Translations under genes and position numbers: made by a program | Shown here: positions 1,884 through 23,300 of the stretch, in pieces | Layout of the letters: every line of letters begins with the position of its first letter | How positions within the stretch are numbered: the first letter of the stretch is position 1 | Source of the DNA: Myxococcales bacterium | Lineage (GTDB): Bacteria > Myxococcota_A > Polyangia > Nannocystales > Nannocystaceae | Assembly: GCA_020633295.1 (NCBI GenBank) | Contig: JACKDW010000006.1 | Location: 462,181 to 514,895 of the forward strand | Length of the DNA: 52,715 nucleotides | Direction of reading: 5' to 3' | The notes under the pieces: model-generated | Told to the model about the DNA's origin: nothing | The model's input: the letters and a program-made list of their open reading frames with translations, nothing else | Databases searched by the model: none

Positions 1884-3164
1884 ATGTCGAGTAGCAACCA
1901 TGGAAAGCCGCCCGTCCTGCTCGCGCACAAGTGGGCGACAGGCCACGATCCCGCCGGCTGGTGGATGAGCGAGAAGCTCGACGGCGTCCGCGCGTACTGG
2001 GACGGGCGGCGCTTCCTCTCCCGCCAGGGTAACGAGTACATCGCGCCGTCGTGGTTCACGCGGCCGCTGCCGCGGCACCCGCTCGACGGCGAGCTGTGGA
2101 TCGATCGCAAGCAATTTCAGAAGTGCGTCGGGGTGGTCCGCCGGCAGAAGGCCGACGACGGCTGGAAGCAGGTCAAGTACCTCGTGTTCGACGCGCCCTC
2201 GCACGGCGGCATCTTCGAAGACCGGGTCGAGCACCTCACCGACCTCATCACCGGCATGGGCGCGCGCCACGTCGTCGCGGTCGATCACGTCCGCTGTCGC
2301 GATCACGCGCACCTGATCACCGAGTTCAACCGCGTCGAGGCGCTCGGCGGCGAGGGCCTGATGCTCCGCGAGCCGCGCTCGATGTACGCGGCCGGCCGCT
2401 CCCGCTCCCTCCTCAAGGTCAAGCGCTTCCACGACGCCGAGGCCAAGGTCCTCGGCTACATCGACGGTCAGGGGCGACACGCGGGTCGCGTCGGCGCGCT
2501 CTCGGTCGTCACGCCCGGCGGCGTACACTTCGCGATCGGCTCGGGGCTCTCTGACGCCGACCGCGATGACCCGCCGAAGATCGGCGCCATCGTCACGTTT
2601 CGTTACCAGGAGCTGACCGACGCGGGCGTCCCGCGGTTCCCGACCTTCGTCCGGATCCGTGACGACTTCGACTGGCCGACCAACGGCGCCAGCGCGAGCC
2701 GTCCCGTCGCCTCCAGCGTCCCGCTGACCCCCGCCGCCGCCAGGGCCTCGAGCGGCTCCGGCAAGACGACGAGCAAGACGAGCAAGACGAGCAAGACGAC
2801 GAGCAAGTCGTCGGGCAAGACGAAGAGCAAGCCCAAGAGCGCGCCCACGAGCACGCCCGCCGCGCCGACGGCAACGACGCCCGCGACGTCAACGACGCCC
2901 GCGACGTCAACGACGCCCGCGACGTCAACGACGCCCGCGACGAGCGCGGGCACCAACGTGACGCGCTACTTCGAAAAGCCGGGCGCGCCGGGCTCGTTTT
3001 GGGAGGTCACCGCCCAGGGCGTCGCCATGGCCGTGCGCTACGGCGAGCTGGGCACGCGCGGCAAGACCAAGCTCAAGACCTTCCGCGACGCGGCGCGGGC
3101 GACCCGCGAGGCCGAGCGGCTGCTCGCGATCAAGCTGAAAAAGGGCTTCGTCGAGAAGCCCTGA
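1884..3164 (+). CDS. ATP-dependent DNA ligase (minimal nucleotidyltransferase + OB fold) fused through a low-complexity Thr/Ser/Lys/Pro linker to a C-terminal WGR domain
   Basis: 426 aa. Ligase motif I KLDGVRAYWDG, motif III-like YLVFDAP, motif IV EGLMLRE, motif V LLKVKRF, and an OB domain (AIVTFRYQELTDAGVPRFPTFVRIRDD). The linker has TSKTSKTSK and (TTPATS)n repeats. The C-terminal 70 aa (TRYFEKPGAPGSFWEVTAQGVAMAVRYGELGTRGKTKLKTF...AIKLKKGFVE) match the WGR fold pattern. Confidence 0.85.
   Translation: MSSSNHGKPPVLLAHKWATGHDPAGWWMSEKLDGVRAYWDGRRFLSRQGNEYIAPSWFTRPLPRHPLDGELWIDRKQFQKCVGVVRRQKADDGWKQVKYLVFDAPSHGGIFEDRVEHLTDLITGMGARHVVAVDHVRCRDHAHLITEFNRVEALGGEGLMLREPRSMYAAGRSRSLLKVKRFHDAEAKVLGYIDGQGRHAGRVGALSVVTPGGVHFAIGSGLSDADRDDPPKIGAIVTFRYQELTDAGVPRFPTFVRIRDDFDWPTNGASASRPVASSVPLTPAAARASSGSGKTTSKTSKTSKTTSKSSGKTKSKPKSAPTSTPAAPTATTPATSTTPATSTTPATSTTPATSAGTNVTRYFEKPGAPGSFWEVTAQGVAMAVRYGELGTRGKTKLKTFRDAARATREAERLLAIKLKKGFVEKP
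2761..2945 (+). repeat. In-frame tandem repeats encoding the ligase linker (AAGACGAGC-type 9-mers at 2764-2810; 18-bp unit ACGACGCCCGCGACGTCA x4 at 2874-2945)
   Basis: Direct reading. The second block has three perfect plus one imperfect 18-bp copies and encodes TTPATS repeats. Confidence 0.7.
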
Positions 3165-3644: not shown

Positions 3645-4124
3645 CGGTGCTTCGCTCCTCGTCTCGAGGCGGTCCCGGCCGCCGCGTGAGTGTCGGGAAT
3701 CATATCGCAGCGCCCTCCTCCGCAGGGCAGCGAGCTCGCTGCGTGTACACGCGCACGCGTCGCGATCATCGCGCGACGGCGCGGGCACGCGTCGCGCCTG
3801 CGCGCTCGGGCGAGCTCGAGTCGCGCTCCTCGAGCGAGCCGCGAGCGATCGTGCCGGCCGCGGGACCGCGCGCGCGCGCGCGCTTCTGCGGACGCGCCGT
3901 AAAACCTGCGGCGACTCGACTCGAGTCTTCGGCAAAAACAGCGACGCCGCGCGCGAGTTCGCCCCGGATCGAGCGGGCGATCCGCGCGCCTCGTGTGATA
4001 CGGTTCGCACGCGCTGACTGGGGCCCCGACGCCGATCCCGTCCACAATCGGTGATCGCGCTCGGCGAGCGCCCGTCTGCGACGTCTGTTATCCGTCCGAC
4101 CCCCAACCTGGAATCACGACGACC

Positions 4125-9140: not shown

Positions 9141-9592
9141 GCTATGGGCTCCTGCACGCGTGAATCAGTGCGTCGCGTGCACCGTCCAACCCCTTTGCAA
9201 CTTGTGTGCACCGTGTGATTTCAGGACGTTGCACGGCGTGCCAAGCTCGACCCCGACCGAGATGCCGCACGTTCCACCGGCGGTCGGACATTCGTGTCGT
9301 GAGTCGGGAAGTTACCGGCCTCGGCGCTTTTACGCTCGAAGAACCCGATTGGCTCGACCCGCGACTCAACCCCGAAGGTCACTCGCCAGAACGTGATACC
9401 AAGGCGAAGTGGACGACGAGGTCGAGGTCTGCTGTCCGTATTGTTGTGAGTGGATCTCGTTGTACGTCGATCCACACACGCGCGGCGAGCTCATCCAGGA
9501 CTGTGATGTGTGCTGTCGTCCGTGGCGCGTGTTCGTCGCGCGCGATGAGGACGGCCAGCTCGCAGTCACTGTGGACCGCGCGTGAGCGTCGG

Positions 9593-9757
9593 TCATGAGC
9601 GTAGCGGCGCGCGATCCGTCGCGCGTCGACCATCGGTGATCCGCAGCGCGGGGCGCTTGCGGAGATCAACGCGATAACCGGACTCAAAGAACAGACTCAG
9701 GAGCCCGAGCCCGAGGGAGAAGAAGCAACCGGCGAGTACGATGGTTGAAAATGACAT
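9593..9757 (-). CDS. Possible small membrane protein (54 aa)
   Basis: From the internal ATG at 9755-9757: MSFSTIVLAGCFFSLGLGLLSLFFESGYRVDLRKRPALR..., a single hydrophobic helix, with AGGA 8 nt upstream. Lies in an AT-richer 790-bp gap. Weak. Confidence 0.3.
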   Translation of the reverse strand: MSFSTIVLAGCFFSLGLGLLSLFFESGYRVDLRKRPALRITDGRRATDRAPLRS

Positions 9758-9931
9758 AGCGTGTCCTGTACCGGCTGCCACTAAGCAGACTCCAGGCCAA
9801 GCCCACGCGAACGCCAACCGTCTGATTTTTCTACACTTCACCACCCGCCCCCACAGGGAAGCCGGCCAGTCGGCTGGCCATCCCTGACCACTTTGGTTGC
9901 CCCCGCCGAGCGCGGGGCCAGCGGCCAGCGC

Positions 9932-11635
9932 TCAGCCGAGGCCGTACGCGCGAACCCGGTACTCGTCGAGCATCCGCTGGGCGTTGAAGTAGGACCCCGC
10001 CAGGGCGATCGAGCCGCGCATGACCTCGGACCACGCGTGGGGGTTGTCCCGGTACATCGGGAGCACCACCGCGTCGAGCAGTCGATACAGCTGATCCGCT
10101 TCGGCATCATCGGCGTCGTCCCCGTGATGGCCGTGGGGCTCAATCGCCCAGCCGGTGTGCCCGATGATGCAGCCCTCGACCCACCAGCCGTCGCGCACGC
10201 TGAGGTTGGGCACACCGTTGTGCGAGGCCTTCATCCCGCTCGTGCCCGACGCCTCGAGCGGCGCCCGCGGCGTGTTGAGCCAAAGATCAACACCAGAGGT
10301 CAGCAAGAGCCCGAGATCCATGTTGTACCCGGGGATATAGGTCAGCTGGATGTCGGGACCGACGCGCGCGCGCAGCCCGTGAATCTCGGAGATGAGCCGC
10401 TGCCCCTCCTCGTCGCGGGGATGCGCTTTGCCAGAGTACACGAGCTGCAGGCGCCCGTGACGCGCGGCGATCGCCCGAAGCCGCTCGATGTCGCGGAGCA
10501 CCAGCGTCGGGCGCTTGTAGGCGGTCGCGCGCCGGGCGTATCCGATCGTGAAGACGTCGGGATCGAGCTGCACGCCGCAGCGTGTCGCTACCTCGGCGAG
10601 CAGCGCGCGCTTGGCCGCGTTGTGGGCGGCGACGATCTCGTCGAGCGGGATCCGCTCCGCGAGGCGAAGCGCGTAGTTCTGGTGGCGCCACTGCGGGATG
10701 TGACGATCAAACAGCGCGCGAAACGACGGGCTCGTCCAGCTCGTGGAGTGCACGCCGTTGGTGATCGCGTGGATCTCGTGGCCGGGGAACATCCCGCGGG
10801 AGACTTCGCCGTGACGCCGCGCGACGCCGTTGACGAAGCCGCTCAGCGCCAGCCCGAGCCGGCTCATATTGAGCTCGGCGTGCTCCTGCTCGGGGAGGCG
10901 AGAGAACAGCGCGAGCCCCTTCTCGCCGAGCACGCGCCGCGCGAGGTCACGCGAGAACGAGTCATGTCCCGCCGGCACGGGCGTGTGAGTCGTGAACACG
11001 CAGGCGGCGCGTACGTCGTCGATCGCCTCGGCGAGCTGCGCGTCGCCGGGACCCTCGAGCTTCGCGCGCAGCAGATCGAGCGCGAGCAGGGACGAGTGCC
11101 CCTCATTCATATGGTAGACGCGCGGCGTGTAGCCGAGCGCGGCGAGCATCCGGCGCCCGCCGATCCCGAGGATGATCTCCTGGGCGAGGCGATAGCGCTC
11201 ATCTCCGCCGTAGAGATGATCCGTGAAGCGTCGATCGTCGGGGCTGTTGGGCGCGATATCGACATCGAGGTACAGGATCGGGATCACGTGCCCGTCGATG
11301 CCCGAAAGACGCAGGATCCAGGCCTGCACGGCGACGACGCGCCCCTCGATCTCGACGGTGACGCTCGGGTGCTCGAGACGCTCGAGGTGCTCGGACGGCT
11401 CCCACTCGACCGGGGCGACCTCCTGGCGTCCGTCGCTGGTAATGCGCTGCTGAAAGTACCCCTGGCGATGGAGCAACGTCACCGCCACAAGCGGCAGGCC
11501 CATGTCCGCGGCGGCGCGCAGCGTGTCCCCGGCCAGCACGCCGAGTCCACCCGAGTAAGTTGGGATACGCGCGGACAGCCCGATCTCCATGGAGAAGTAC
11601 GCGATCTGAGCGGGAGGCGTGATGTGGTCTGGCAT
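9932..11635 (-). CDS. glgP: Alpha-glucan (glycogen/maltodextrin) phosphorylase, GT35 family
   Basis: 567 aa. N-terminus IAYFSMEIGL...GGLGVLAGD and the PLP-site region EASGTSGMKASHNGVPNLSVRDGWWVEG are characteristic of the short alpha-glucan phosphorylases. Confidence 0.9.
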   Translation of the reverse strand: MPDHITPPAQIAYFSMEIGLSARIPTYSGGLGVLAGDTLRAAADMGLPLVAVTLLHRQGYFQQRITSDGRQEVAPVEWEPSEHLERLEHPSVTVEIEGRVVAVQAWILRLSGIDGHVIPILYLDVDIAPNSPDDRRFTDHLYGGDERYRLAQEIILGIGGRRMLAALGYTPRVYHMNEGHSSLLALDLLRAKLEGPGDAQLAEAIDDVRAACVFTTHTPVPAGHDSFSRDLARRVLGEKGLALFSRLPEQEHAELNMSRLGLALSGFVNGVARRHGEVSRGMFPGHEIHAITNGVHSTSWTSPSFRALFDRHIPQWRHQNYALRLAERIPLDEIVAAHNAAKRALLAEVATRCGVQLDPDVFTIGYARRATAYKRPTLVLRDIERLRAIAARHGRLQLVYSGKAHPRDEEGQRLISEIHGLRARVGPDIQLTYIPGYNMDLGLLLTSGVDLWLNTPRAPLEASGTSGMKASHNGVPNLSVRDGWWVEGCIIGHTGWAIEPHGHHGDDADDAEADQLYRLLDAVVLPMYRDNPHAWSEVMRGSIALAGSYFNAQRMLDEYRVRAYGLG

Positions 11636-11768: not shown

Positions 11769-14429
11769 CTATCGCCGCCGTCGTCGGCCCGACGACGCGA
11801 CCGCGAGCAGGAGCAGCGCGGCGAGGGACGGCCCACGCTCGCGGGTCGTGCTGCACGCGCATCCCGAGCCGCCACCGTCTTCGTCGAAGCCGGTCTCTGT
11901 GCCGCTCGTCGCCGTCGATCCGGCCGTGGTGCTCGCGGGGCCGTCGCTCGACGCGGCCGAGCCATCGCTGCTCGCGTCCACCGTGCTCGCGTCGGATCCT
12001 GAGCCCGTGGTCGTCGACGAGTCCTCCGTCGTCCCGCCGGTCTCGCTGTCCGTCGTTCCGGTCGTCTCGCCCGGGTCCTCCCCGTAGTACGCGCCGCACG
12101 CTGGCTCCGAGAACATCCCGGCCCGATGCGCGAGCGAGAGCGTGTAGGCGCCCGCGCCGAAGCCGAGCATCGGCGTGTTGAATTTGTAGGTCCCGTCGTT
12201 CTCGTCGAAGGTCTCCGCGACCATGAGGAAGTTGGCGAGCGCCTGGTCGAGCACCCAGTTCGTGAGCGCGTCGGCCCGCGCCGCGTCGCCGGCCATCCGC
12301 TTGGCGATCGACCCGCGAAGATCGGTGATCACCCACTCGGCGCTGTCGTAGTCGCTGCCCCAGGGGCTCACGTCCTCGGCGTTCGCGTGATCCCAGCGAT
12401 CGTCGTTGCGCGACCAGCCCTCGCCGGCCGCGACCGCGAGGTGCGCGTCGAGGCCGTCGAGCGTCGCCTGCGCGATCGGACCGGTCGGATCAAACAGCCC
12501 CATGGCGATCGCGTCGAGCACGGCCGCGTCCCAGTAGCCCTCGCCGACCGCGAGCTCCTCGGTGTTGACCGCGATCGCGCCGCCGCCGTCCGTGAGCCGC
12601 GCGGCGATCGCCCCGCGGAGCGCCTCGGCGGCCGCTTGATACGCCGACGCCCGCGCCGCGTCGCCGCGCCGCTCGGCGATCGCGGCGGCGTCGCACAGGC
12701 CCCGCGCCGCCGTGATGTTCGTGTAGGCGAAGTGGCGCTCGCGCCCGTTCCAGTGCGTCTCCCAGATCGACGAGTCGGGGCGCAGCAGGCCGGTGTCGGG
12801 CTCGATCAACGCGAGGATGACATCGGCGATCTCGGTCGCTATCAGCTCCCAGTTGTCGTCGGCCACGCTCGTGTCGCCGGTCGCGATCTCGTAGACGCGC
12901 AGCGCCCACAGAAACAGCCCGAAGCCGTCGAACTCGAGGTTGGGGCCGAAGTCGTTGAAGTCCGTCTCCTCGACGCCGAAGCCGTAGTAGCGCACCAGGC
13001 TGATCTGGTAATCGGGCATGTCGTACGAGGCGAGCTCGCCCCAGTCCTTGAAGCGGCCTGCCTCTGCGTTCAGGTAGAATCGCAGGCCGTCGCGCGCCTC
13101 GTCGGCCATCCCGAGGATCGCCATGGCCGCGACCCCGTAGGCGCCGTCGCGGATCCACGCGTACGTCCAGTTGCCCGGGGGCATGCTCGCGAGCAGCGCC
13201 CCGCGCGCGTTGTGCTCGACCTCCGCGGGCAACACCGCCGGGTCATCGGCGCCGGCGGGGAAGCGGGTCCTGCGGACATCCCCGTCGCTCGCGAGGTGCT
13301 CGCGGAGGAAGTAGCGATCCTCCTGCACCTGTCCCATGCGCAACATCGCCGCCGAGTGCCGCACGAGCGTCTCCTCGTCATCACCGAGCCCGTCGGGCGG
13401 GGTGAGCGTGCTCTGGAACGCGGCCCACGCCCCGAGCTCGGCCTCGACGAGCGTCTGCGCGCCCTGCCCCCCCGCGTAGTCCTCGAGCCACTGCTGCGCC
13501 GCGTCGCCCGCGAAGGGGTCGGGGTGATGCGCGAACGCGACGCCCGCCCACGCCTCCGCGCCCGCGTCGATCGTCCCGAGGTCGAACTGCAGCGCCGCGA
13601 CCGATCCATCGACCGCGTCGGCAGGCGGCGCGTTGTCCGGGAGGTCCGCGAGCGAGTCCTTCACGAGGTCATAGACGGCGACGCCGGGCGCGAAGCCCTT
13701 GTGCGCGATCGGTCCGAGGGCGCGGGTCGCGATGGCGCCGGCGAAGCCGCGCTCGAGGATCGTCTGGCCCGCGTCGGTGATCGTCTCGCCGTTCTCGCCG
13801 ATATCCTGCCCGACCTCCCAGGGCGAATTCGCGCGCCCGTACCCCAGATGAAAGTTGCTCAGCGAGAACGCCTGCACGCCCGGGAGCGCCTGATTCGAGT
13901 TGTTGCGCACGCGCAGCGCGAGCACGACGGCGGCGCGGGGAACGTCGCGCGGCGCGAACACGAAGGTCGTGAACTCGAGGTCGCCAGCGTGCTGCACCAC
14001 CGCCACGACCCCCGACCCGCCTGTCGCCTCCGACGTGTAGCCCACGTACCCGCTGGCGTCGTGGTCGACGGGGAGCTCGGTCAGCCAGAACTGCTCTCCG
14101 GCGACCCGCGCGCCGAAGTAGGCGTCGAACACGAGATCACGGGTGTAGACGGCGGCGAATTGGCCCCCGTCCCAGATCTCCTCGCCGTTCTCGTCGAGCT
14201 GGGGCTCCTCGGCGGCGAACAGGTGCTCGCGAAATTGCTCGAGCTTCCCGCTCTCGAGGTTCACCAAGCCGGCGCCGTGTCCATTCGAAAACGGCAGCTC
14301 AAAGCGCGTGCGCTGGACGGGCACGGCGGCCCGGGCGTCGGTCCCCAGCGCCCCCGCGAGCGTCAGGGTCACGAGCGAGAAGACCGCCACACCCCGACCG
14401 GGGGCTTGAGAGAGCAGGCGCGCGCACAT
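11769..14429 (-). CDS. Secreted GH15 glycoside hydrolase (glucoamylase/glucodextranase-like) with MYXO-CTERM tag
   Basis: 886 aa. Signal peptide; GH15-like (alpha/alpha)6 region with a WIRDGAY motif; C-terminal Thr/Ser/Gly-rich linker; then GGGSGCACSTTRERGPSLAALLLLAVASSGRRRRR. Confidence 0.8.
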   Translation of the reverse strand: MCARLLSQAPGRGVAVFSLVTLTLAGALGTDARAAVPVQRTRFELPFSNGHGAGLVNLESGKLEQFREHLFAAEEPQLDENGEEIWDGGQFAAVYTRDLVFDAYFGARVAGEQFWLTELPVDHDASGYVGYTSEATGGSGVVAVVQHAGDLEFTTFVFAPRDVPRAAVVLALRVRNNSNQALPGVQAFSLSNFHLGYGRANSPWEVGQDIGENGETITDAGQTILERGFAGAIATRALGPIAHKGFAPGVAVYDLVKDSLADLPDNAPPADAVDGSVAALQFDLGTIDAGAEAWAGVAFAHHPDPFAGDAAQQWLEDYAGGQGAQTLVEAELGAWAAFQSTLTPPDGLGDDEETLVRHSAAMLRMGQVQEDRYFLREHLASDGDVRRTRFPAGADDPAVLPAEVEHNARGALLASMPPGNWTYAWIRDGAYGVAAMAILGMADEARDGLRFYLNAEAGRFKDWGELASYDMPDYQISLVRYYGFGVEETDFNDFGPNLEFDGFGLFLWALRVYEIATGDTSVADDNWELIATEIADVILALIEPDTGLLRPDSSIWETHWNGRERHFAYTNITAARGLCDAAAIAERRGDAARASAYQAAAEALRGAIAARLTDGGGAIAVNTEELAVGEGYWDAAVLDAIAMGLFDPTGPIAQATLDGLDAHLAVAAGEGWSRNDDRWDHANAEDVSPWGSDYDSAEWVITDLRGSIAKRMAGDAARADALTNWVLDQALANFLMVAETFDENDGTYKFNTPMLGFGAGAYTLSLAHRAGMFSEPACGAYYGEDPGETTGTTDSETGGTTEDSSTTTGSGSDASTVDASSDGSAASSDGPASTTAGSTATSGTETGFDEDGGGSGCACSTTRERGPSLAALLLLAVASSGRRRRR

Positions 14430-14489
14430 GCACAGAATCTACTCCGAGTTCTCGCCCGGGAGGGCGACGCATTTTTGTATCGTGATGCC

Positions 14490-16883
14490 ATGCGCTCGCT
14501 CCCTGCACTCGTCGTGTTCACCGCCGTCGTCGGCATCGCCTGCGGCTCGGGCGACTCCGAGTCGACTGAGTCCAGCGACTCGACGCCGACGATGCCGTCG
14601 ACGAGCGAAGGACCGGTGCAGGTCAGCGAGACCGACGGGACCAGCGGCGGCGCCACCGGCTCGAGCGACACCACGACGGGCTCGCCCACAAGCGACACCG
14701 ACTCCACGACGGACGTCGAGACCACCACCGACACCGGCGGAGACGAGCTCGCCTGCCCGACCGAATTCCGCTTCGCGCTCCCCGGCGGCGCTTCGAATCC
14801 GCGCGTCGCGGGGGCGTGGCACGGCTTTGAGCTCGCGACCGCGACCGCGCTCGAAGGCCCCGACGGCGACGGCTACTACACGGCGACGATCGAGCTCGAG
14901 CCGGGGCTCTGGGCCTACAAGATCGTCTACGAGCAGGGCGGCGAGACGCGCTGGGAATTCGATCCGGAGCGCGCGCGACGAACCTACGTCAACGAGATCG
15001 AGAACTCCGCCGCGCTCGTGCGCGACTGCAGCCGCCCCGCGCTCGCGGTGAAGAGTTCGAACGCGACCAGCGACGGCTCGTTCACCGCGTCGCTGTCGTA
15101 CATCGACGGGATCACGGGGGATGGCCCCGCGCCCGCGGACTACACGGCCACGCTCGACGACGAGGGGACCGAGAGCCCGTTGAGCGCCGACGAATTCCAG
15201 ATTGATCCCGACAGCGGTGACGTCTCGATCGCGGTGAGTTCACTCACCGCCGGCAAGTACACGATTCGGGTGGCGGCCGCCGACACCAGCGGGCGCGAGT
15301 CCGAGGTCCTCCGGCTCGTGTTCTGGATCGAGGACGAACCCTACGACTGGAACGGCGCGCTGATTTACATGGTCATGACCGACCGGTTTCGCGACGGAGA
15401 TCCCGGCAACAACGGCGGTCCGACGCCGCCTGCCGATCCCCGGGGGGACTGGCAAGGAGGCGACTTCGAAGGTCTCCGCCAGAAGATCGCCGACGGCACG
15501 CTCGATCAGCTCGGCGTGCGCGCGATCTGGATGACCCCGTTCCAGACCAACCCCTCGGGCCCCTACCTCGCCGCCGACGGGCTCCACCACGTCACCGGCT
15601 ACCACGGCTACTGGCCGATCGCCGCGCGCGAGGCGGACGCGCGACTCGGCGGCGCCGCGGCTCTCCACGCGCTCGTCAAGGAGGCCCACGCGCACGGGAT
15701 CCGCATCCTCCAGGACTTCGTGATCAACCACGTGCACGAGGACCACGAGTACATGACGGAGCACCCGGATTGGTTCCGCACCGGCTGCGTCTGCGGCACG
15801 CAGGACTGCGACTGGACCGGGCACGCGCTCGACTGCATGTTCGCGCCCTATCTCCCCGACATCGACCACCGCGTGACCGAGGCCAACGCGGCCTTCGTCG
15901 ACGACGCGATCTGGTGGCTCGACGAGTTCAACCTCGACGGGCTCCGCGTCGACGCGGTCAAGCACGTCGAGGAGGCCGCCACCCGCAACCTCGCCGCGGC
16001 CGTCCGCGAGGGCTTCGAACCCGCCGGTACGCGCTACTTCCTCATGGGCGAGACCGCGATGGGCTGGTCCGACTGCCCCGACCCCTGCAACGACGAGAAC
16101 TACGGGACCATCTCGAAGTACGTCGGCCCGCTCAACCTCGACGGGCAATTCGACTTCGTCCTCTACCACGCGGTCTCTTACAACACCTTCGCCTACGGCA
16201 ACAAAGGCATGCTGCACGCCGCCTACTGGCTCGAGCACGGACTCGAGAAGTGGCCGGACGACGCCGTCATGACGCCCTACATCGGCAGCCACGACACCCC
16301 GCGCTTCGTCTCGCTCGCGGACTATCGCGGGCAGGACGGCGCGCACGACCCCGGCGTCGCCCACAGCCAGTGGGACAACGTCGCCGAAGCGCCCGGCGAT
16401 CCGGAACCCTACCGCCGCGCGCGGATCGGCATGGCCTGGCTGCTCGGCCTCCCGGGCGCGCCGCTGCTCTACTACGGCGATGAGTACGGTCAGTGGGGCG
16501 GGGCCGACCCCAACAACCGACAGATGTGGCGCTCGGAGGACGCGCTGAACCCTGACGAGTCGCAGACGCTCGACTTCGTCCGCCAGCTCGGCGCCGCGCG
16601 GTCCAACATCCCGGCGCTGCGCGTCGGCACCTACGTCGCCCTCGACGCGACCGAGGACAGCATCGTGTTCGGGCGTCACCTCGCGGGCGGCGAGTCAGCC
16701 GTCGTCGCGGTGACGCGCGCGGACCAGGCGCAGCAGCTCTCGGTCAACGTGAGCGAGTCGCTGGGGCTCGCGCCCGGGACCGTGCTCGCGGACGCGCTCG
16801 GGGGGCCCGACGCGACAGTGTCGGTCGTCGGGAACCTGATCGTGAACATCCCCCCGAGCGGCGCCGTGATCCTCGCGCCCTGA
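14490..16883 (+). CDS. Secreted alpha-amylase-family (GH13) lipoprotein with N-terminal Thr/Ser-rich linker and Ig-like domains
   Basis: Start at the ATG at 14490 (MRSLPALVVFTAVVGIACGSG, lipobox). GH13 conserved regions: DFVINH, GLRVDAVKH, GYHGYW, FLMGE and IGSHDTPRF. The 5' part of the 1585-aa ORF 12126..16883 is an antisense shadow of the GH15 gene. Confidence 0.9.
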   Translation: MRSLPALVVFTAVVGIACGSGDSESTESSDSTPTMPSTSEGPVQVSETDGTSGGATGSSDTTTGSPTSDTDSTTDVETTTDTGGDELACPTEFRFALPGGASNPRVAGAWHGFELATATALEGPDGDGYYTATIELEPGLWAYKIVYEQGGETRWEFDPERARRTYVNEIENSAALVRDCSRPALAVKSSNATSDGSFTASLSYIDGITGDGPAPADYTATLDDEGTESPLSADEFQIDPDSGDVSIAVSSLTAGKYTIRVAAADTSGRESEVLRLVFWIEDEPYDWNGALIYMVMTDRFRDGDPGNNGGPTPPADPRGDWQGGDFEGLRQKIADGTLDQLGVRAIWMTPFQTNPSGPYLAADGLHHVTGYHGYWPIAAREADARLGGAAALHALVKEAHAHGIRILQDFVINHVHEDHEYMTEHPDWFRTGCVCGTQDCDWTGHALDCMFAPYLPDIDHRVTEANAAFVDDAIWWLDEFNLDGLRVDAVKHVEEAATRNLAAAVREGFEPAGTRYFLMGETAMGWSDCPDPCNDENYGTISKYVGPLNLDGQFDFVLYHAVSYNTFAYGNKGMLHAAYWLEHGLEKWPDDAVMTPYIGSHDTPRFVSLADYRGQDGAHDPGVAHSQWDNVAEAPGDPEPYRRARIGMAWLLGLPGAPLLYYGDEYGQWGGADPNNRQMWRSEDALNPDESQTLDFVRQLGAARSNIPALRVGTYVALDATEDSIVFGRHLAGGESAVVAVTRADQAQQLSVNVSESLGLAPGTVLADALGGPDATVSVVGNLIVNIPPSGAVILAP

Positions 16884-17212
16884 CGAGGTCGCGGCGCGTG
16901 TCCCCGCGGCCATCTTCGAGCACAACCTCAAAAAACACGAAGTTTCTCGTTGACAGCCTTGCCGGCTGCGGCTACACCAACCACGCTCCACCAATATTGT
17001 GGTTGGAGGTCACGTCATGAATCGTTCCACGCACACAACAGGCATCCGCGCACCCATGGCGGACCGCGTCCTGTTCCTCGCCCCAGGTGGCGAGGGATAC
17101 GCGTGTTGAGCAGTTCCCGGCGTGAAAACGTTTATCTAGCGAGCCTCTCGTGGATTGACGCCGAAGCGCCGGGCCTCTCGGCACGCGCGGTCAGCCCTCG
17201 AAGACGCACTAC

Positions 17213-17284
17213 GCTGGCGTAGCTCAACGGTAGAGCACCTGCTTTGTAACCAGGTGGCTGTGGGTTCGACTCCCACCGCCAGCT
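17213..17284 (+). tRNA. tRNA-Thr (anticodon TGT)
   Basis: Manual cloverleaf: 7-bp acceptor stem GCTGGCG/CGCCAGC; D-arm GCTC-AACGGTA-GAGC; anticodon arm CCTGC-TTTGTAA-CCAGG (one C-C mismatch at the loop-proximal pair); T-arm GTGGG-TTCGACT-CCCAC. CCA is not encoded. Confidence 0.7.
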
Positions 17285-17324
17285 CAACGGTGCCTGATGA
17301 CCACCATCTTCAGGACCTCCGCGT

Positions 17325-17536
17325 CGCGTTGGTTGTCGAGTTGTTATCGAGCTGAGTTGTTATCGAGCTGCGTTGTTATCGCGTTGAACTGGTATCGAGT
17401 TGCGTTGTTATCGAGCTGCGTTGTTATCGCGTTGAACTGGTATCGAGCTGCGTTGTTATCGCGTTGAGCTGGTATCGCGTTGAGCTGTTATCGCGTTGAG
17501 CTGGTATCGAGCTGCGTTGCTATCGTGTTGAGCTGC
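17325..17536. repeat. AT-rich tandem array of about 13 degenerate 16-bp units (GTTGTTATCGAGCTGC / GTTGTTATCGCGTTGA / ACTGGTATCGAGCTGC, 48-bp higher-order unit), just 3' of tRNA-Thr
   Basis: Direct reading of 17325-17536. The units are contiguous with no spacers, so this is not a CRISPR array. GC is far below the genomic 70%. Confidence 0.75.
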
Positions 17537-17642
17537 CCGAGATTGGATCACAACCCGTAGACATCAAGTATCGCGCTGAGTAGCGTAGATCATGGGCCCG
17601 CCGCCGGTTTCACCGGCGCGCGGGCCCACCCGTTTCAGCGGC

Positions 17643-19991
17643 TCAGCGCTTCCACCACGGCTTGTCGGACTCTAGCGGCTCGGACGCCGGCTCGATCTTC
17701 AATCCCGCCGAGCTGATCTCGACCTCCAGCACGTCGTTCGGGCGCCTCCCAGAGTCCTCGACCTCGACCTCGACCTCGACCTCGACCTCATCCTCCAGGT
17801 CGACTTCGACGGACGCGCTGTCCATCGCGCCGAGATCGATCTCCACGCTCGTGACGGGATTCCTCGTCGGCTGGGCGAACGGCGAGCGCGGCTCTCCCGC
17901 GTGAAATGGGCTCGAGGTCGGCGGCGCGAAGGGCGAGCGCGCGCCGCGGGTCGACGACGAGCGGGGCGCGAGGCGTGACGCGGAGGCCATCCGGCGACTC
18001 TCAGCCTCCTTGAAGCGATTCGCTAGGGTCTTGATGAAGGCCCCCATCCAGGGCTTCATCGCGTCGAACTCCCGCTCGATCACGTCGCCGGTGACCATGA
18101 TCAGCTTCGTGTCCGTGACCGCGACGACGCTCGCCGTTCGCGGCGACTCGGCGAAGATCGCGGTCTCTCCGAACACGTCCCCGGGGCCGAGCATCCGCAA
18201 GGAGACGCGCTCGCCGTCGACGTTCTTGTAGACCTCGAGTCGCCCGACCTCGACGATGTAGGCGGCGTCGCCGACCTCCCCCTCGCGAATGACGTGGGAG
18301 CCCTGCTTGTAGGTGATCGCGGGGAAGTTGCCGCCGCCGCGGATCAGCCGCTGCAGGTCCTGCTTGAGCGCGTCGGTGGTGCCGTAGCGCTCGGCGGGCT
18401 TACGCGAGAGCGCCTTCATCGTGATCCGGACGAGCTCGCGCGGGTACATCACGCCGCTGACGAGCTCCTCGGGCGGCGGGATGACGCAGCGCTGGGCCAT
18501 CCGCAAGGTCTCGATGTTGGAGTGCCCGCGATACGGCGGCTGACCCGTGAGGACCTCATACAGGATCGCGCCGAGCGCGAAGATGTCCGAGCGCTGATCC
18601 ATCTCGGCGTGTCGGCCACGAGCTTGCTCAGGGGACATGTACCCGGGCGTGCCGAAGACGAGCCCCTCGGTCTCCTCGGGCGGCAGCTCCGGCAGCGGGT
18701 CGTGCACGATCATCCGCGACTCGCCCTCGACTTCGAACAGCCGCGCGCCGCCCCAGTCCATCAGATACACCTGCCCGTAGTCGCCGACCATGATGTTCTC
18801 GGACTTGATGTCGCAGTGCAGGACGCCGCGCGAGTGCGCGTAGCCGAGCGCGTCGCAGACCTTGATCAAGATCTCGAGGATGTTGAGCAGCCGATCATGA
18901 TCGTGGCGCTCGGGGTGCCGGATCACCTCCGCGAGGCTGCGGCCGTCGATCAACTTCATCGTGAAGTAGATGCGGTGCTTGGTGTCGAGCCCGAGCTCGT
19001 GCACCGGGACGATGTTGGGGTGCGCGAGCTGCCCGGTGATCTGCGCCTCGCGGAGAAAGCCGCGGACGAGCATCGGCTGCTGATAGGTCCGATCGTGCAG
19101 GAGCTTGATCGCGCAGCGCCGCTGCAGCGCCCGATCGAGGACGACGCCGATGGAGCCGGTCCCTCCACGCGCGATCTCGCCTTCGTAGCGCAGGCGCTCC
19201 CCCCCCTGGGCGAACACGGCGCGCACCATCTCCTGAATCCGCGGATGAAAGCCCGCGACGAGCGCGGCGCGCCTGCTCGCACGCGACGACCGCCGTCGCC
19301 GCGAGGACGGCGCGTCGTCCTCGCGCTCGACCTCATCGGCCTCGTCGCGCTCCTCGACGCGCTCCTCGCCGCGGCCATCTCGTGGCGCGCCCGAGCTGCT
19401 CGCCGGCTCCCGAGCGGACGCGCGCTCCGACGCCTCGCGCGCGCGCAGCAGCGGCGACGGGATCGCCGGCAGCGAGTCGCTCGGCGTGATCGCGTCGGGG
19501 AGCGTCGCGCTCGGTGACACGTTCGACGGCAGCGACTCCTCGAGGATCGGGGACCCGCGGGTTGAAGAGCTCGGGCTCAGCGGGCGCTGTACGCTCGCGC
19601 GCTGCCGGTGCGCGCGCGAGACCGGCGGCGGCGGCGGCTTCGACGACGTGCTGCCGCTCGCGGGCGTGCTGGTGCGGACGCGCACCATCGGCGGTGTGTC
19701 CGTGTTCTCATCGAGCGCGCTGCCAGCGAGCGGCGGCGGCGGGATCATCGACGCCGCGCCGACCGGATCGGCGCGCGGCGCCCTCGATGACTCTGCGCGA
19801 ACGCCCGTGGCGCGTGACGCCTTCGACCCTACGACCGGCGGCGCGGGCACAGGAGCGCCGCGCTTCGACCCGCCGCTCGGGGTCGCGGGCGGCGTCAGGC
19901 GTGAGGAGCCCCCGCTTGCGACGCGTCCGCGGCGACCCGCGCCGGAGCCGGTCGACGGCGGCTTCCCCACGCTCTTTTTCGAGTCCCCCAT
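17643..19991 (-). CDS. Ser/Thr protein kinase with C-terminal cyclic nucleotide-binding (cNMP) domain
   Basis: Kinase catalytic loop HCDIKSENIMV, DWGGA (DFG-equivalent) and GTPGYMSPEQ (APE). The cNMP domain has GDVFGETAIF...PRTASVVA. A Pro/Ser/Arg-rich N-terminal region leaves the start uncertain among several in-frame ATGs. C-terminal (EV)n tail. Confidence 0.85.
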   Translation of the reverse strand: MGDSKKSVGKPPSTGSGAGRRGRVASGGSSRLTPPATPSGGSKRGAPVPAPPVVGSKASRATGVRAESSRAPRADPVGAASMIPPPPLAGSALDENTDTPPMVRVRTSTPASGSTSSKPPPPPVSRAHRQRASVQRPLSPSSSTRGSPILEESLPSNVSPSATLPDAITPSDSLPAIPSPLLRAREASERASAREPASSSGAPRDGRGEERVEERDEADEVEREDDAPSSRRRRSSRASRRAALVAGFHPRIQEMVRAVFAQGGERLRYEGEIARGGTGSIGVVLDRALQRRCAIKLLHDRTYQQPMLVRGFLREAQITGQLAHPNIVPVHELGLDTKHRIYFTMKLIDGRSLAEVIRHPERHDHDRLLNILEILIKVCDALGYAHSRGVLHCDIKSENIMVGDYGQVYLMDWGGARLFEVEGESRMIVHDPLPELPPEETEGLVFGTPGYMSPEQARGRHAEMDQRSDIFALGAILYEVLTGQPPYRGHSNIETLRMAQRCVIPPPEELVSGVMYPRELVRITMKALSRKPAERYGTTDALKQDLQRLIRGGGNFPAITYKQGSHVIREGEVGDAAYIVEVGRLEVYKNVDGERVSLRMLGPGDVFGETAIFAESPRTASVVAVTDTKLIMVTGDVIEREFDAMKPWMGAFIKTLANRFKEAESRRMASASRLAPRSSSTRGARSPFAPPTSSPFHAGEPRSPFAQPTRNPVTSVEIDLGAMDSASVEVDLEDEVEVEVEVEVEDSGRRPNDVLEVEISSAGLKIEPASEPLESDKPWWKR
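17757..17799 (-). repeat. Hexanucleotide tandem repeat (GACCTC)n encoding the (EV)n tail of the kinase
   Basis: Reading of 17757-17799. The translation shows EVEVEVEVEVEVE. Confidence 0.7.
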
Positions 19992-20333
19992 TCAGCGCGT
20001 CGCATCGTCGTTCTACCACATTCCCTGGCCCAGTCCTCGCGCTCCAGGACGTGCGCGTGCGCGCTTGATTCTGCATCAAAAGACAGGTCCGTGGAGGCGG
20101 CCGAGGACCGCACGAACAACGCTCGCGCGCGCATCGCTCCCGAGTCGACGGCCGACGGCCGCGACCGAGCGTGATGTGGGGCGCGCACCGACGATCGCCT
20201 AGCGCTCCGCACCGGGATCTTGGGACGACATCGGACCCATGAGCGACGCGACGCCAGCACGAGCCCGCTGCGGCCGATGAGGGCGGCGCCCTCGGTCTCG
20301 TCCTCGCGCTCGAGTCACCGGCGGACCCCTCAC

Positions 20334-23300
20334 CTAGTCGCGCGCCGAGAACTCGAGCAAGCGGGCGACGAGGCCGGCGAGCACCGTGCTCGCGCGCTCG
20401 AGCTCGTCTCCGGTCTCGGCGTTGGCGATCGCGCCGAGCGGCGCGCGGAGCTCACGACCGACCGCGGCCAGGAACACGCTCGTCGCCCTGCTCGAGGCCT
20501 GCGCCTGCCGCTGCGCGTCTTCGAGCGCCGCCGCGCGCGTCCGCAAGCGAGCTTCCTCGTCACGGTGGGCGCTCACGTCCACGACGAGCACGTACTGGCC
20601 GTCGCCGGAGCTCCTGCCGGTGAAGCTCAGCTCAAACGCGCGCTTGGGGCCGCTCGGCGGCTCGATACAGCGCTCGACCGTGCGGACCGCCCCGTCGAGC
20701 GCGCGCGCGAGGCCGAAGTCCAGCCCTCCCCAGATCGCGCGCCACCACTCCGCCGAGCTCCCCCACTCGGTCGTCAGGTGCTCGAGCGTCTCGTCGCCGC
20801 CCAGCAGGGCCCCCGCCGCGTCGACCGTGATGACCGCGATCCCGAGGGCACGCGTCGCGCTCTCGAGCAGCTCGGTCGCCTCGCGGCGTGCCGCCGCCGC
20901 GGTGAGCTCGCGGCGAATGAGCCGCGCTGACTCAATCGCGAGCGCGACGTAGATCGAGATCGACTGCAGCGCGCGCTCGTCGTCCCGCGTGAACATCCCG
21001 GCCGCGAGGCGGTTGTCGACGTAGAGGACGCCGAGGGGGCGCTCGCCGAGGTTCACGGGCGTCGCGATCACGCTGCGGAGGCCGAGCGTTGTCTCGCTGC
21101 GGGCCCTGCCGGCGAGCTCTCCGGCGGCGCTGATGAACAGGGTGCGCTGCCCCGTGAACACGCGCGTGATGATCTCCTCGTCGCAGCTCGCGCCCGCCGC
21201 GAGCGGGCGACCTCCAGCGCCCCGCGCCGCGACGCGCCGCGGGCTAGAGCCTGTCTCATCGACCATAAACAAAAACCCGCGCTCGGCGCCTAGAAAGCCG
21301 AGCAGCGCGTCGAGGATCAGCTGCGCCTGGTGCTCGAGGCTGCTCGAGCGAGACGCGGAGAGGCTGAGCGCGAGGACGGTCTCGTGGAAGCGCGCGGGGC
21401 CGACATCGAGCTCGAGCGGCGACGCGCTCTCGCGCTTGTCGACGCGCGCGGGGGATGTCGGCGACGGCGGCGCCGGGCTCGGGCGCTCCTGCTGGATCCA
21501 CGCGGCGCGCGTCGCCATCCCGTGCCGATCGGCGAGCGCGAGCGCGAGCGCGCGCGCGCGCTCTGCCGCCGCCGGCATGCCGGCGGACGCGAGCGCGTGC
21601 GCGCGAACCCGCGCTGCCTCGCACAGCGCCCGGGGGCTGTCGATCCGCCGCGCGATGGTCTCGGCTCGCTCGAGCCACGGCTCGACGCGATCGGCCTGAT
21701 CGGTCAGGTAGCAGTACAGCCCCTCCATGACCGCCCACTGCGCCTCCAGGATCGGCACGTCGCTCGCGGCGCGCACGCGATCGAGCAGCATTCGAGCGCG
21801 GTCGCGGACGCGACCGCGGAGCCGTTGTCCAGGCCGCCGGAGCGCGCGAAGCAGCACGCCGTGGGCCGCGGCGAAGAAGCCGTGCCGTCCGTCGACCGTG
21901 AGGCGCCGAGGGTCGAGCCCCAGCTCGAGGAACTGCTCGACGCGGCGATCAAACAGCGCGTCGAGCTCGCCGGTCTCGACGTACACGGTCAGCTCGCCGC
22001 TGAGCAGGCTGGCGCGCGCGTAGATCTCGGAGGCGAACGGGCGCATCGCCGCGCGCGCCCGCTTGAGCTGCTGCAGCGCCGCGCCCCCGAGCCCGCGGCC
22101 CGCGAACACGCAGGCCGCGTAGACCGTGACGACGTGGGTCTGCGCCCGGCGGGCGTCCACGTTGACCAGGAAGCGCTTGCACGCGCGCTCCGCCCACACG
22201 CGCGCCTCCTCGACGTGCCCGCGATCGAACAGGTTCCAGATGAGCGCGAGCGCGATGTTGCCGTAGGCGTCCGCGTCGAGCCGCCGCTCGCCGAGCGCCA
22301 TCGCCTCGCGGTAGGCCGCGAGCGCGTCGCGGGAGTGGCCGAGGAGGTCGAGCCCGTAGCCGCGGTAGCCGACGGCGCGGGTGAGCGCGCCGCGATCGCC
22401 GATGACGCGCGCGAGCTCGATCGAGCGCTTGATGTAGCGACGAAACCGCCCCTCGAGCCCGAGCACCGCCATGACCATGGCGTAGTTGGTGTAGGCGAGC
22501 ACCTGGGCGCGATCGGGGCTCGCGCTCGTCGCCAGCTGGAGCGTGCGGACGGCGGACTGCACGAGCAGGCCGCCGCGCATCGAGAAGTAGGCGGCGTGGT
22601 CGACGACGTAGAGCAGGCGCAGCGCGATGCGGCGACGCTCGGCGTACCTCGCGGTCGTCGTGTCGGCGCGACGGGGCGCGCGGCGAACCAGCGCCGCGAT
22701 CGCGCTGAGCACCGCCCAGACGGACTCGGCGGGCGGCGTCTCGCCGAGCGCCGCGAAGCCGCGCTGGACCTCGTGCATGGCCTCCTCGAGGAAGAAGCCG
22801 GCGACCTTGACCTCCGCGATGCTCGCGTGGATCGACGCGCGCCGCAGCGGGGTGTCGGCGCGCGACAGCGCCTCCGCGAACGCGCGATCGGCCTCGTCGA
22901 TCCGCCCCACGAGGCCGCAGACCTCGCCGCGCAGCGCGAAGAACGAGCCGGGGAGCGCGATGCCGGCGTCACGCGCGACGGACTCCGCCCGCTCGAGGTA
23001 CTGGTGAGCGTCGAGCGGCGCGTGGCGGGCGTGGGCGAGCAGCCCGGCGCGATGGTTGCTCTCGAGCACGCGCTGCGGATCACCCACGCCGACGCCGCCG
23101 GCCGACGCCGCGTTGTAGTGACGCGCGATCGCGAAGACGCTGTCGTGGCCGCGCTCGCGGCTGCGCTCGAGCGCCCGCGCGCACCGGCCGTGGAGCGCGG
23201 CGGCCCGCTCGGCGTCGAGCTGCTCGAGCAGCGCCTCGTGCAGGCGCTCGTCGACGAACGCGTAGCGCCGCTGACCCACGCGCTCGATGACCCGCGAGTC

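Follow-up and report, generated by a model that had tools for sequence, protein, structure and literature searches.

What does a row of a dozen near-identical 16-bp units do behind a threonine tRNA gene on a bacterial chromosome? The array in question occupies positions 17340-17531 of a 52,715-nt stretch of DNA (the window; all positions refer to it unless a relative is named), where it sits between the 3′ end of a tRNA-Thr(TGT) gene and the 3′ end of a convergent Ser/Thr protein kinase gene. The window (GC content, ~70%) comes from an uncultured member of the Polyangia, deposited as a metagenome-assembled genome (MAG) under the name "Myxococcales bacterium" (GenBank assembly GCA_020633295.1, contig JACKDW010000006.1, positions 462,181 to 514,895, forward strand). 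Here, we report that comparison with two related genomes points to purifying selection on the repeat unit within an array that itself turns over, and that the array is probably a set of binding sites for a sequence-specific factor.

Array and tRNA gene

The features at the center of the question are as follows.

17213-17285, + strand: tRNA-Thr, anticodon TGT (UGU), CCA not encoded; called by ARAGORN and Rfam RF00005, 97% identical to its ortholog in a related MAG (L003, below)
17281-17291, + strand: second copy of the 11-mer AGCTCAACGGT, straddling the tRNA 3′ end; the first copy (17221-17231) lies in the D arm
17324-17339, + strand: decayed first unit TTGGTTGTCGAG, the left boundary of the array and in register with it
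17340-17531, + strand: core array, 12 units of 16 bp with the motif G-T-T-G-K-T-A-T-C-G-M-G-Y-T-G-A, defined by Tandem Repeats Finder (TRF), by register, and by a logo of 31 units

TRF called a period-16 array of 12.2 copies at 17338-17532 and further described the same array with period 32 (6.2 copies) and period 48 (4.0 copies, 85% matches). The 12-unit core contains no insertion or deletion, and TATCG recurs in it twelve times at a spacing of exactly 16 bp. Counted with its decayed edge units, the gap-free array runs from 17324 to 17541; a partial unit at 17532-17541 forms the right edge, and an orphan unit follows in phase at 17564-17579. Autocorrelation reached 0.70, 0.73, and 0.74 at lags of 16, 32, and 48, and units 2-4 match units 5-7 at 47 of 48 positions, the mark of a recent 48-bp duplication. 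A search of the window with the 16-mer (up to 3 mismatches) returned 10 matches, against 0.30 expected, with 8 of the 10 inside the array; other copies of the unit in the window were single near-matches at chance level. Across the array the GC content falls to 0.51-0.525 from ~0.70 in its surroundings, and the + strand shows a GC skew of +0.18 to +0.20 and an AT skew of −0.28 to −0.41.

The copy number of 12 is insecure, and all copy numbers given here are minimum estimates, because assemblies break or gap inside the array. In GCA_020431325.1, an assembly of the same organism, two contigs end within the array, one on each side (L017, 5730-5791; L006, 3960-4024); the end of L017 shows two differences from the window. 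In GCA_964496845.1, the array (L010, below) is bridged by 100 N (3897-3996).

A first-pass annotation, made from the letters of the window, had described a tRNA-Thr(TGT) gene directly followed by an AT-rich 16-bp tandem array with a 48-bp higher-order periodicity. ARAGORN and Rfam RF00005 (69.5 bits against a gathering score of 29) agree on the tRNA, the sole one that ARAGORN found in the 52.7-kb window. The tandem array, too, is as described (12 full units plus decayed edges), and the 48-bp periodicity is real but modest (autocorrelation of 0.74 at lag 48). Two of the qualifiers needed correction: the drop in GC content is genuine but makes the array (~0.51) AT-rich only relative to a ~70% GC genome, and the array does come after the tRNA but is not adjacent to it, with a spacer of 38 nt before the first decayed unit and 54 nt before the first full one.

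Relatives of the array

A pattern of three consecutive unit cores was scanned against one genome per species (185,579 species); the pattern is strict (10 of 16 positions fixed), and diverged arrays could be missed. The single true relative found was L003, a Polyangia MAG collinear with window positions 15507 to 22000 at 75 to 77% nucleotide identity. Like the window, it has promoter-like hexamers and a leader ahead of tRNA-Thr(tgt); after the tRNA come a spacer that has diverged, 11 of the 16-bp units, a tail that is conserved, a hairpin rich in GC, and finally the kinase gene's 3′ end. Another Polyangia MAG, L010, was reached through an 81%-identical ortholog of the GH13 gene upstream of the tRNA and has the layout of the window, with at least 13 units around the 100-N gap. 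The GH13 proteins of L003 and L010 share 96% amino acid identity. Boundary strings on the left (TTGGTTGT(A)TCGAG) and on the right of the array are common to the window, L003, and L010, and we therefore take the arrays of the three loci to descend from one ancestor. The comparison rests on these three genomes, all of them MAGs and two of them (L003 and L010) close.

Farther afield, distant GH13 orthologs (L011 to L016, 67 to 70% identity) have no tRNA, leader, or array after the GH13 gene, and the closest database relatives of the kinase (L007 and L008, 59 to 64% identity) have no tRNA or array nearby. The genome and metagenome scans yielded four further pattern matches, each with 3 to 4 copies of a 16-bp unit (L001, 2577-2640; L002, 588-640; L004, 39-83; L005, 3956-3992). 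Their unit core reads GTTATCG(C/T)GTTG, with T in the free column 13 in all four, and their sources are a Metamycoplasmataceae-labelled MAG, a Calditrichaceae MAG, a JGI (Joint Genome Institute) metagenome, and a human gut metagenome. As candidate relatives they were rejected: they lie on unrelated low-GC or gut contigs and were judged by estimate to be chance matches, because the pattern fixes 10 of 16 positions and the collections hold many 16-bp tandem repeats. Nor is the array a generic repeat dispersed over unrelated loci, a possibility that the first-pass annotation had raised, since the strict scan of the 185,579 species genomes gave the ortholog L003 and two unrelated short repeats only. 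The strict three-unit pattern likewise found two unrelated short repeats and no relative of the array in metagenomes, and zero matches among viral contigs; blastn against plasmids and phages returned zero similarity.

Constraint on the unit and turnover of the array

A unit logo was built from the 31 complete (readable) units of the three genomes. Ten columns are invariant in 31 of 31 units (T3, G4, T6, A7, T8, C9, G10, G12, T14, and G15, or xxTGxTATCGxGxTGx), and no insertion or deletion occurs within any unit. Three further columns, K5 (T/G), M11 (A/C), and Y13 (C/T), vary in each of the three genomes, always with one pair of bases per column, and each of the eight combinations was seen. Variants specific to the window are found at columns 1, 2, and 16, with single changes at columns 5 and 11 and none in the ten invariant columns. 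The consensus of the window and that of L003 are identical at 13 of 16 columns, and position-by-position differences between the two arrays are confined to the variable columns. Identity between the window and L003 along the locus was as follows.

Intergenic stretch preceding the promoter-like site: 49%
22 nt before the tRNA: 45%
tRNA-array spacer (17286-17323): 44%
Four-fold degenerate sites of the flanking genes: 57 to 63%
Leader: 82%
Array, position by position: 86%
tRNA: 97%

At ~0.6 identity per neutral site, the probability that 13 consensus columns stay unchanged is ~0.001 by our arithmetic. The arrays themselves do not stay the same. The window holds 12 units in a 48-bp order, L003 holds 11 in a strict 32-bp alternation (95% matches), and L010 holds at least 13, mostly of one unit type; L003 and L010 thus differ in copy number and pattern despite their 96% identical GH13 proteins.

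Since the same columns are invariant next to unconstrained flanks of 44 to 49% identity while copy number varies, these sequences indicate a selected unit in a dynamic array: purifying selection appears to keep the unit and not any particular array. Conservation by column in this manner is the signature of a recognition motif, predicted here to be TGKTATCGMGYTG (13 nt). The two alternatives at K5, and likewise those at M11, cannot pair with one common partner base, so that a protein reader is favored over simple RNA-RNA pairing.

The chief alternative to selection is a neutral minisatellite, or variable-number tandem repeat (VNTR), in which slippage and unequal exchange homogenise a functionless unit and the conservation reflects recent ancestry and concerted evolution. 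Much of the behavior of the array would suit it: the three genomes disagree in copy number and higher-order pattern, the edge units on either side are decayed, a 48-bp block (47 of 48 identical) was duplicated recently, assemblies break in the array, and the comparison is limited to three genomes. Homogenisation, however, acts within and not between genomes, whereas the consensus here is equal in genomes whose neutral sites are near saturation (57 to 63% and 44 to 49% identity), and the variation is limited to a few columns, the same ones in all three. We consider a neutral origin of this pattern clearly unlikely. The first-pass annotation had offered a hypervariable minisatellite among its readings; the variability of copy number and pattern is in line with it, but the unit sequence is not free to vary.

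Predicted transcription unit

Around the tRNA and the array, the following features were identified.

16950-16978, + strand: promoter-like site, TTGACA (16950-16955), a 17-nt spacer, and TACACC (16973-16978), found by sequence inspection
16985-17212, + strand: conserved structured leader with a 30-codon open reading frame (ORF) at 17017-17109
17286-17323, + strand: poorly conserved tRNA-array spacer with a weak hairpin (CCTGA, 17293-17297; TCAGG, 17310-17314)
17532-17593, + strand: tail, with the partial unit at 17532-17541, the box TCACAAC-N3-TAGAC (17548-17562), the orphan unit at 17564-17579, and a conserved CGTAGATCAT
17594-17627, either strand: GC-rich hairpin GGGCCCGC...GCGGGCCC, with ACCCGTTTC next on the + strand, from folds of both strands

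Both promoter-like hexamers are invariant in the window, L003, and L010, with the sequence upstream of them 49% identical, and the site at 16950-16978 is the putative start of a tRNA-Thr transcription unit. A consensus scan misses it because the second hexamer lacks the final T. The leader is more conserved than the coding flanks (82% identity to L003; mean column identity of 89% across the three loci; counterparts of 16950-17212 at 1470-1728 in L003 and at 3376-3634 in L010). Its predicted fold has a minimum free energy of −99.7 kcal/mol (z = −3.4), and four compensatory pairs occur among the three sequences. The 30-codon ORF is preceded by a GGAGG Shine-Dalgarno sequence and is open in all three loci, with an in-frame 3-nt deletion in L010. 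Codons 5 to 8 of this ORF read ACG CAC ACA ACA in the window and ACG CAA AAA ACA in L003 and L010. ACA accounts for 1.9% of the Thr codons in the genes of the window and is read solely by the downstream tRNA-Thr(UGU), and the leader ORF with its rare ACA codons could provide attenuation-like self-control of the tRNA gene. The leader had no match in Rfam, and the leader peptide had none in NCBIfam.

On the far side of the array, the tail is 62% identical to L003 overall but retains conserved blocks. The hairpin that follows lies 15 nt past the kinase stop codon; its nine outer pairs are invariant in the three loci, and its inner stem is retained with a different sequence. It is probably a shared (bidirectional) terminator, which the terminator scan misses because it has no T-run. 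Between tRNA and array, the scan called no terminator-like site in the window. The conserved hexamers, leader, tRNA, array, tail boxes, and hairpin all lie on one strand. On the simplest reading, the segment from the promoter-like site to the shared hairpin would be one transcription unit with the array as the 3′ trailer of the tRNA. The order of tRNA, array, and conserved hairpin would suit the position of a trailer of the tRNA 3′ETS (3′ external transcribed spacer) type, with an extra spacer hairpin in L003 and L010.

Several other accounts of the array were tried and rejected. A coding repeat fails, as there is no ORF of ≥60 amino acids in the array and the sole 56-amino-acid frame cannot be conserved, because the unit length is no multiple of 3, copy numbers differ, and the codon style is wrong. 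A structured RNA is not indicated by the folds of 17286-17640 (z = +0.5 for the + strand and −1.6 for the − strand, the latter owing to the terminal hairpin), and Rfam, searched at the gathering score and at E values up to 10, found only the tRNA. An array of promoters was dismissed when no promoter-like site was called in 16700-17800. The units abut, so that a CRISPR array, already set aside in the first-pass annotation for want of spacers, is excluded by the same absence; the best Rfam match, CRISPR-DR22, scored 16.3 bits where 50 are needed. A plasmid, phage, or virus origin found no match by blastn (plasmids and phages) or in the viral contig pattern scan. By eye, and in no formal test, we know of no fit of the unit to the DnaA box, IHF (integration host factor) site, parS, CRP half-sites, SARP heptads, TRAP triplets, or Tn7-type end repeats.

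The 11-mer at the tRNA 3′ end

The 11-mer AGCTCAACGGT has exactly two matches in the window (17221-17231 and 17281-17291; 0.02 expected). That eleven nucleotides of the tRNA body recur after the gene, as the first-pass annotation had it, is therefore right as to the duplication but not as to the place, because the second copy lies across the tRNA 3′ end, with acceptor stem plus discriminator making up its first 5 nt. The duplicated string is D-arm-like and copies nothing of the tRNA 3′ half, and the trailer copy is only partly retained in the relatives (9 nt in L003; 6 nt, broken, in L010).

The 11-mer is tied to the array by complementarity. Within the array, CGUUGAGCUGG is exactly complementary to CCAGCUCAACG, a string of the tRNA 3′ end plus trailer, as well as to 9 nt in the D arm. 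The reverse complement of some unit junctions in the window, CCAGCTCAACG, equals the 3′ acceptor strand of the tRNA plus trailer at 17279-17289. This stretch has perfect inverted matches of 11 nt at 17462-17472 and 17494-17504 and of 10 nt at 17478-17487. Array RNA might thus pair in cis with the tRNA precursor and mask or guide its 3′ processing. Such matches are rare (reverse-complement matches of ≥11 nt to the array occur at only 3 loci in the 52.7 kb, with a chance of ~0.006 per given 100-nt region), and the duplex energy in the window is better than that of 96% of shuffles. The relatives do not follow: exact complementarity is down to 6 nt in L003 and L010 (8 to 10 bp allowing G-U pairs), the duplex energies there are ordinary (shuffle fractions of 0.35 and 0.19), the trailer string is broken in L010, and the invariant TATCG core takes no part. 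Pairing in cis is very improbable as the function of the array, and the complementarity is probably non-functional.

The same 11-mer had supported the leading idea of the first-pass annotation, that the array is an attachment (att) site scar or the decayed boundary of an element integrated at the tRNA 3′ end. Integration at tRNA genes is common, an 11-nt tRNA string does recur at this 3′ end, and the distant relatives (GH13 67 to 70% identical) lack tRNA and array after the GH13 gene. The idea is nonetheless largely refuted. Both flanks (GH13 and kinase) are collinear in the window, L003, and L010, with nothing inserted; no integrase, transposase, Rep, Par, or phage domain was found by Pfam in the ~31 genes of the window; and no second copy (≤3 mismatches) of the final 23 nt of the tRNA occurs in the 52.7 kb. 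The 11-mer copies the D arm and not the 3′ half, the array is under constraint, and viral contigs, phages, and plasmids gave zero matches. Where comparison of the locus between genomes had been proposed for copy-number variation or an inserted island, the former is seen (12, 11, and at least 13 units) and the latter is absent from all three genomes.

A proposed platform of binding sites in RNA or DNA

The conserved unit is best accounted for by an array of binding sites under selection, which probably serves as a multivalent platform for a sequence-specific factor at the RNA or the DNA level. The platform would consist of about a dozen identical copies of the 13-nt motif TGKTATCGMGYTG, one per 16 nt, for a putative factor. 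At the RNA level, transcription would start at the promoter-like site, pass through tRNA and array, and reach the hairpin, and tRNA 3′-end processing would then free a trailer of ~340 nt. The body of this trailer would be an unstructured G/U-rich run with ~12 binding motifs, its 3′ end shielded by the hairpin. It could bind many copies of one putative RNA-binding factor and so titrate or store it, a sponge effect that would follow the logic of sponge action by a tRNA 3′ external transcribed spacer, with a body made of tandem repeats. We hold this RNA-level version tentatively and favor it slightly over the DNA-level one, because of the unit-like anatomy, the position between two 3′ ends, the accessibility of the single strand, and the 3′ETS precedent. 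The + strand RNA of the array folds no better than shuffles (z = +0.5) and would therefore be accessible as a single strand.

At the DNA level, the array would be a chromosomal iteron, operator, or decoy array in which a sequence-specific DNA-binding protein covers ~200 bp, each 16 bp taking one protomer. Such an array could titrate the protein after the logic of datA or incA, could form a roadblock or insulator where the tRNA and kinase units converge, or could be the distal partner in a loop to a core-like site in front of the GH13 gene. In favor of this version are direct repeats in strict register without an indel in 31 units, a non-palindromic 13-bp core, which is typical of sites bound as direct repeats, and keto (K5), amino (M11), and pyrimidine (Y13) degeneracy as would be expected for reading in the major groove, together with the core-like site at 14475-14487 before GH13, partly kept in L010. 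Against it, the neighboring genes include no Rep, Par, ribbon-helix-helix, or other DNA-binding gene (Pfam, genes of the window), the array lies between two 3′ ends and away from a promoter, where an operator would have no obvious promoter to control, and no plasmid or phage record is similar. A 16-bp spacing (~1.5 helical turns) sets neighboring sites on opposite faces of the helix, unlike most iterons, and by eye, with no formal test, we know of no DnaA box, IHF site, or parS that the unit matches, which also counts against it. Its closest anatomical precedent is the set of 11-bp iterons of R1 parC, each of which binds one ParR dimer (PMC2241845). On balance, an array acting as DNA is possible but rather doubtful. 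The iteron-like array of protein-binding sites suggested in the first-pass annotation is supported as a possibility, in DNA or RNA, by the motif-like conservation of columns; no binding partner was found.

A number of points weigh against the RNA-level version. Only three genomes were available, two of them close, and variants shared among them may be inherited and not recurrent. Transcription of the array is a prediction from sequence, and the stronger hairpins that L003 and L010 carry in their own tRNA-array spacers, although without a proper T-run, could stop transcription before the array. Near-matches to the unit outside the array occur at chance density (3 observed, 1.84 expected), and a candidate binding protein was not found. 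A single-stranded motif of 13 nt is long for most bacterial RNA-binding domains, and the K/M degeneracy and strict 16-bp register would be explained at least equally well by recognition of double-stranded DNA. Perfect tandem direct repeats of 11 to 22 bp are classically DNA sites, for example, iterons and centromeres (PMC2241845).

The opposite strand offers a further reading, in which the array would be a Rho-utilisation region or insulator: minus-strand array RNA would load Rho and halt read-through from the kinase gene before it became antisense to the tRNA gene. The + strand skews imply a minus-strand RNA with about twice as much C as G, C- and A-rich, G-poor, and unstructured; the − strand folds weakly apart from the terminal hairpin, and the tRNA unit and the kinase gene are convergent. 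Rut sites, however, depend on composition and have no need of ten invariant columns or of a strict 16-nt register, and a conserved strong hairpin already stands between the kinase stop codon and the array. We judge the Rho reading quite improbable.

Extended to its limit, the RNA-level reading would make the 690-bp locus a self-contained regulatory tRNA operon of an undescribed kind that joins control by an ACA leader peptide and leader RNA to a tandem-repeat sponge trailer. The ACA-bearing peptide and the structured leader RNA would tie expression of the tRNA to the tRNA's own supply, and ~12 UGKUAUCGMGYUG motifs in the trailer would titrate a putative sequence-specific RNA-binding regulator, whose single-copy targets would include the translation start region of GH13; the logic would be Csr-like, with an unrelated motif and a coupling to a tRNA gene. 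As a whole, this scheme is an unlikely one.

Two near-copies of the unit core were noted in this connection. One, TTGTATCGTGATG (1 mismatch), lies at 14475-14487, at −15 to −3 of the GH13 start codon and in the usual place of a Shine-Dalgarno sequence. The TTTTTGTATCGTG of this site is kept in L010 (~880-895) and is absent from L011 and L016, which have no array. The other lies at 9667-9679 on the − strand, downstream of a phosphorylase gene and in sense orientation. These are the two best near-matches outside the array, and both fall in the adjacent glycogen gene cluster, sense to local transcription; with near-match density at chance level, they are only a weak lead.

Neighborhood and gene models

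The genes around the locus are as follows.

9932-11590, − strand: phosphorylase, glycogen-catabolism cluster
11769-14390, − strand: GH15, glycogen-catabolism cluster
14490-16883, + strand: GH13 alpha-amylase-family lipoprotein, glycogen-catabolism cluster; from frame analysis by GC content at third codon positions (GC3), Pfam Alpha-amylase, and orthologs (context)
17643-19991, − strand: Ser/Thr protein kinase with a cyclic-nucleotide-binding domain, convergent (Pfam Pkinase, 2.5e-36; cNMP_binding, 1.2e-21) (context)

The kinase and GH13 proteins beside the array are 100% identical to proteins of GCA_020431325.1, and the kinase shares 73% amino acid identity with its L003 ortholog across 773 residues. 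Both genes are given as context. A mechanically called 1,585-amino-acid ORF at 12126-16883 (+ strand) was rejected as half spurious, because it overlaps the true minus-strand GH15 gene; GC3 puts the real GH13 start at 14490. The database annotation of GH13 (763 amino acids) begins downstream of a conserved lipoprotein-like N terminus, MRSLPALVVFTAVVGIACG.

The window contains other repeats. A second non-coding tandem repeat at 1628-1700 (TGACGCGC × 6, 97% matches, plus CGACGCGC variants) occupies the divergent intergenic region between a PspA/IM30 gene (723-1424, − strand) and an ATP-dependent DNA ligase gene (1884-3164, + strand). A perfect hexamer repeat, CCTCGA × 5.7, in the C-terminal region of the kinase (17755-17795) codes for an acidic dipeptide run on the minus strand. 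L003 carries a different hexamer, GACATC, at the matching position (2275-2330), and a second repeat that evolves fast therefore lies 200 bp from the array. An unusually long stretch of 790 bp (9141-9931, ~60 to 65% GC) has no strong GC3 signal and seems to carry small ORFs only, one Cys-rich (+ strand, ~9400-9585) and one hydrophobic (− strand, ~9590-9756).

Comparison with known systems

Csr/Rsm sponges (CsrB and RsmY/Z) are non-coding RNAs in which many copies of a short motif sequester a global RNA-binding regulator, and CsrA also controls glycogen genes; the array, too, adjoins glycogen genes, those of the catabolism cluster. The motifs of Csr/Rsm sponges are GGA in hairpin loops at irregular spacing. 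The unit here, GTTGKTATCGMGYTGA, has no GGA, forms no hairpins (z = +0.5), is spaced in perfect tandem, and has no Rfam match. In Escherichia coli, the tyrT distal repeats comprise about three 178-bp units after the tRNA-Tyr genes, repeating the tRNA 3′ end and including a small ORF and a Rho-dependent terminator. They resemble the present array in being tandem repeats 3′ of a tRNA gene and in having a short string in common with that gene, whereas the units here are 16 bp long, ~12 in number, and non-coding.

For an RNA-level role, the nearest precedent is 3′ETS-leuZ of the E. coli glyW-cysT-leuZ operon, a tRNA-operon 3′ external transcribed spacer that acts as an RNA sponge, according to the secondary account consulted (Lalaouna et al. 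2015, cited in PMC6191717). As described there, it does not code and has its place after the last tRNA and before the terminator; the putative trailer reported here would be like it in this, and release by tRNA processing and titration of a trans-acting regulator are likewise proposed. On the same account, 3′ETS-leuZ is short and non-repetitive and base-pairs with the small RNAs RyhB and RybB, in contrast to the ~12 tandem 16-nt units here. Like R1 parC, the array consists of about ten short head-to-tail direct repeats; in parC, each repeat binds one protein unit and a multimeric complex is built, the units being 11 bp long and set in two blocks around a promoter, beside parR and parM on a plasmid (PMC2241845). 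Unlike parC, the array has 16-bp units in one block, is chromosomal, and has the 3′ end of a gene on either side; Pfam found neither a par nor a rep gene among the ~31 genes of the 52-kb window, which showed no similarity to plasmids or phages. Tandem direct repeats are also a feature of ToxI in type III toxin-antitoxin systems, whose RNA is cut into units that each bind one protein (PMC8860590). ToxI has 3 to 5.6 pseudoknot-forming repeats on the strand of the toxin gene and immediately upstream of it (PMC8860590), whereas the unit here is 16 nt long, unfolded, and present in ~12 copies, and the next gene is a convergent kinase.

The array would work in the manner of iterons or centromeres or of a sponge RNA, but it fails the defining features tested for iterons or centromeres, Csr/Rsm, ToxI, and CRISPR, and it would answer to a tRNA 3′ETS in anatomy only. 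Short non-coding tandem arrays in bacterial chromosomes are usually put down to VNTRs, CRISPR, plasmid iterons, or centromeres, none of which this array fits; from its sequence, it is predicted to be a lineage-restricted binding-site array or a functional tRNA trailer. It also carries a practical warning, as it breaks short-read assemblies in two of four. To our knowledge, the Myxococcota combine very large regulatory networks with almost no characterised regulatory RNAs. Were the trailer RNA real, it would extend the single well-studied tRNA 3′ spacer sponge, 3′ETS-leuZ, to a multivalent, repeat-built form in this phylum; were the array to act as DNA, it would stand as an iteron or decoy array that lies on a chromosome and has no replicon. 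Under either reading, the defined 13-nt motif offers a direct handle for finding its partner.

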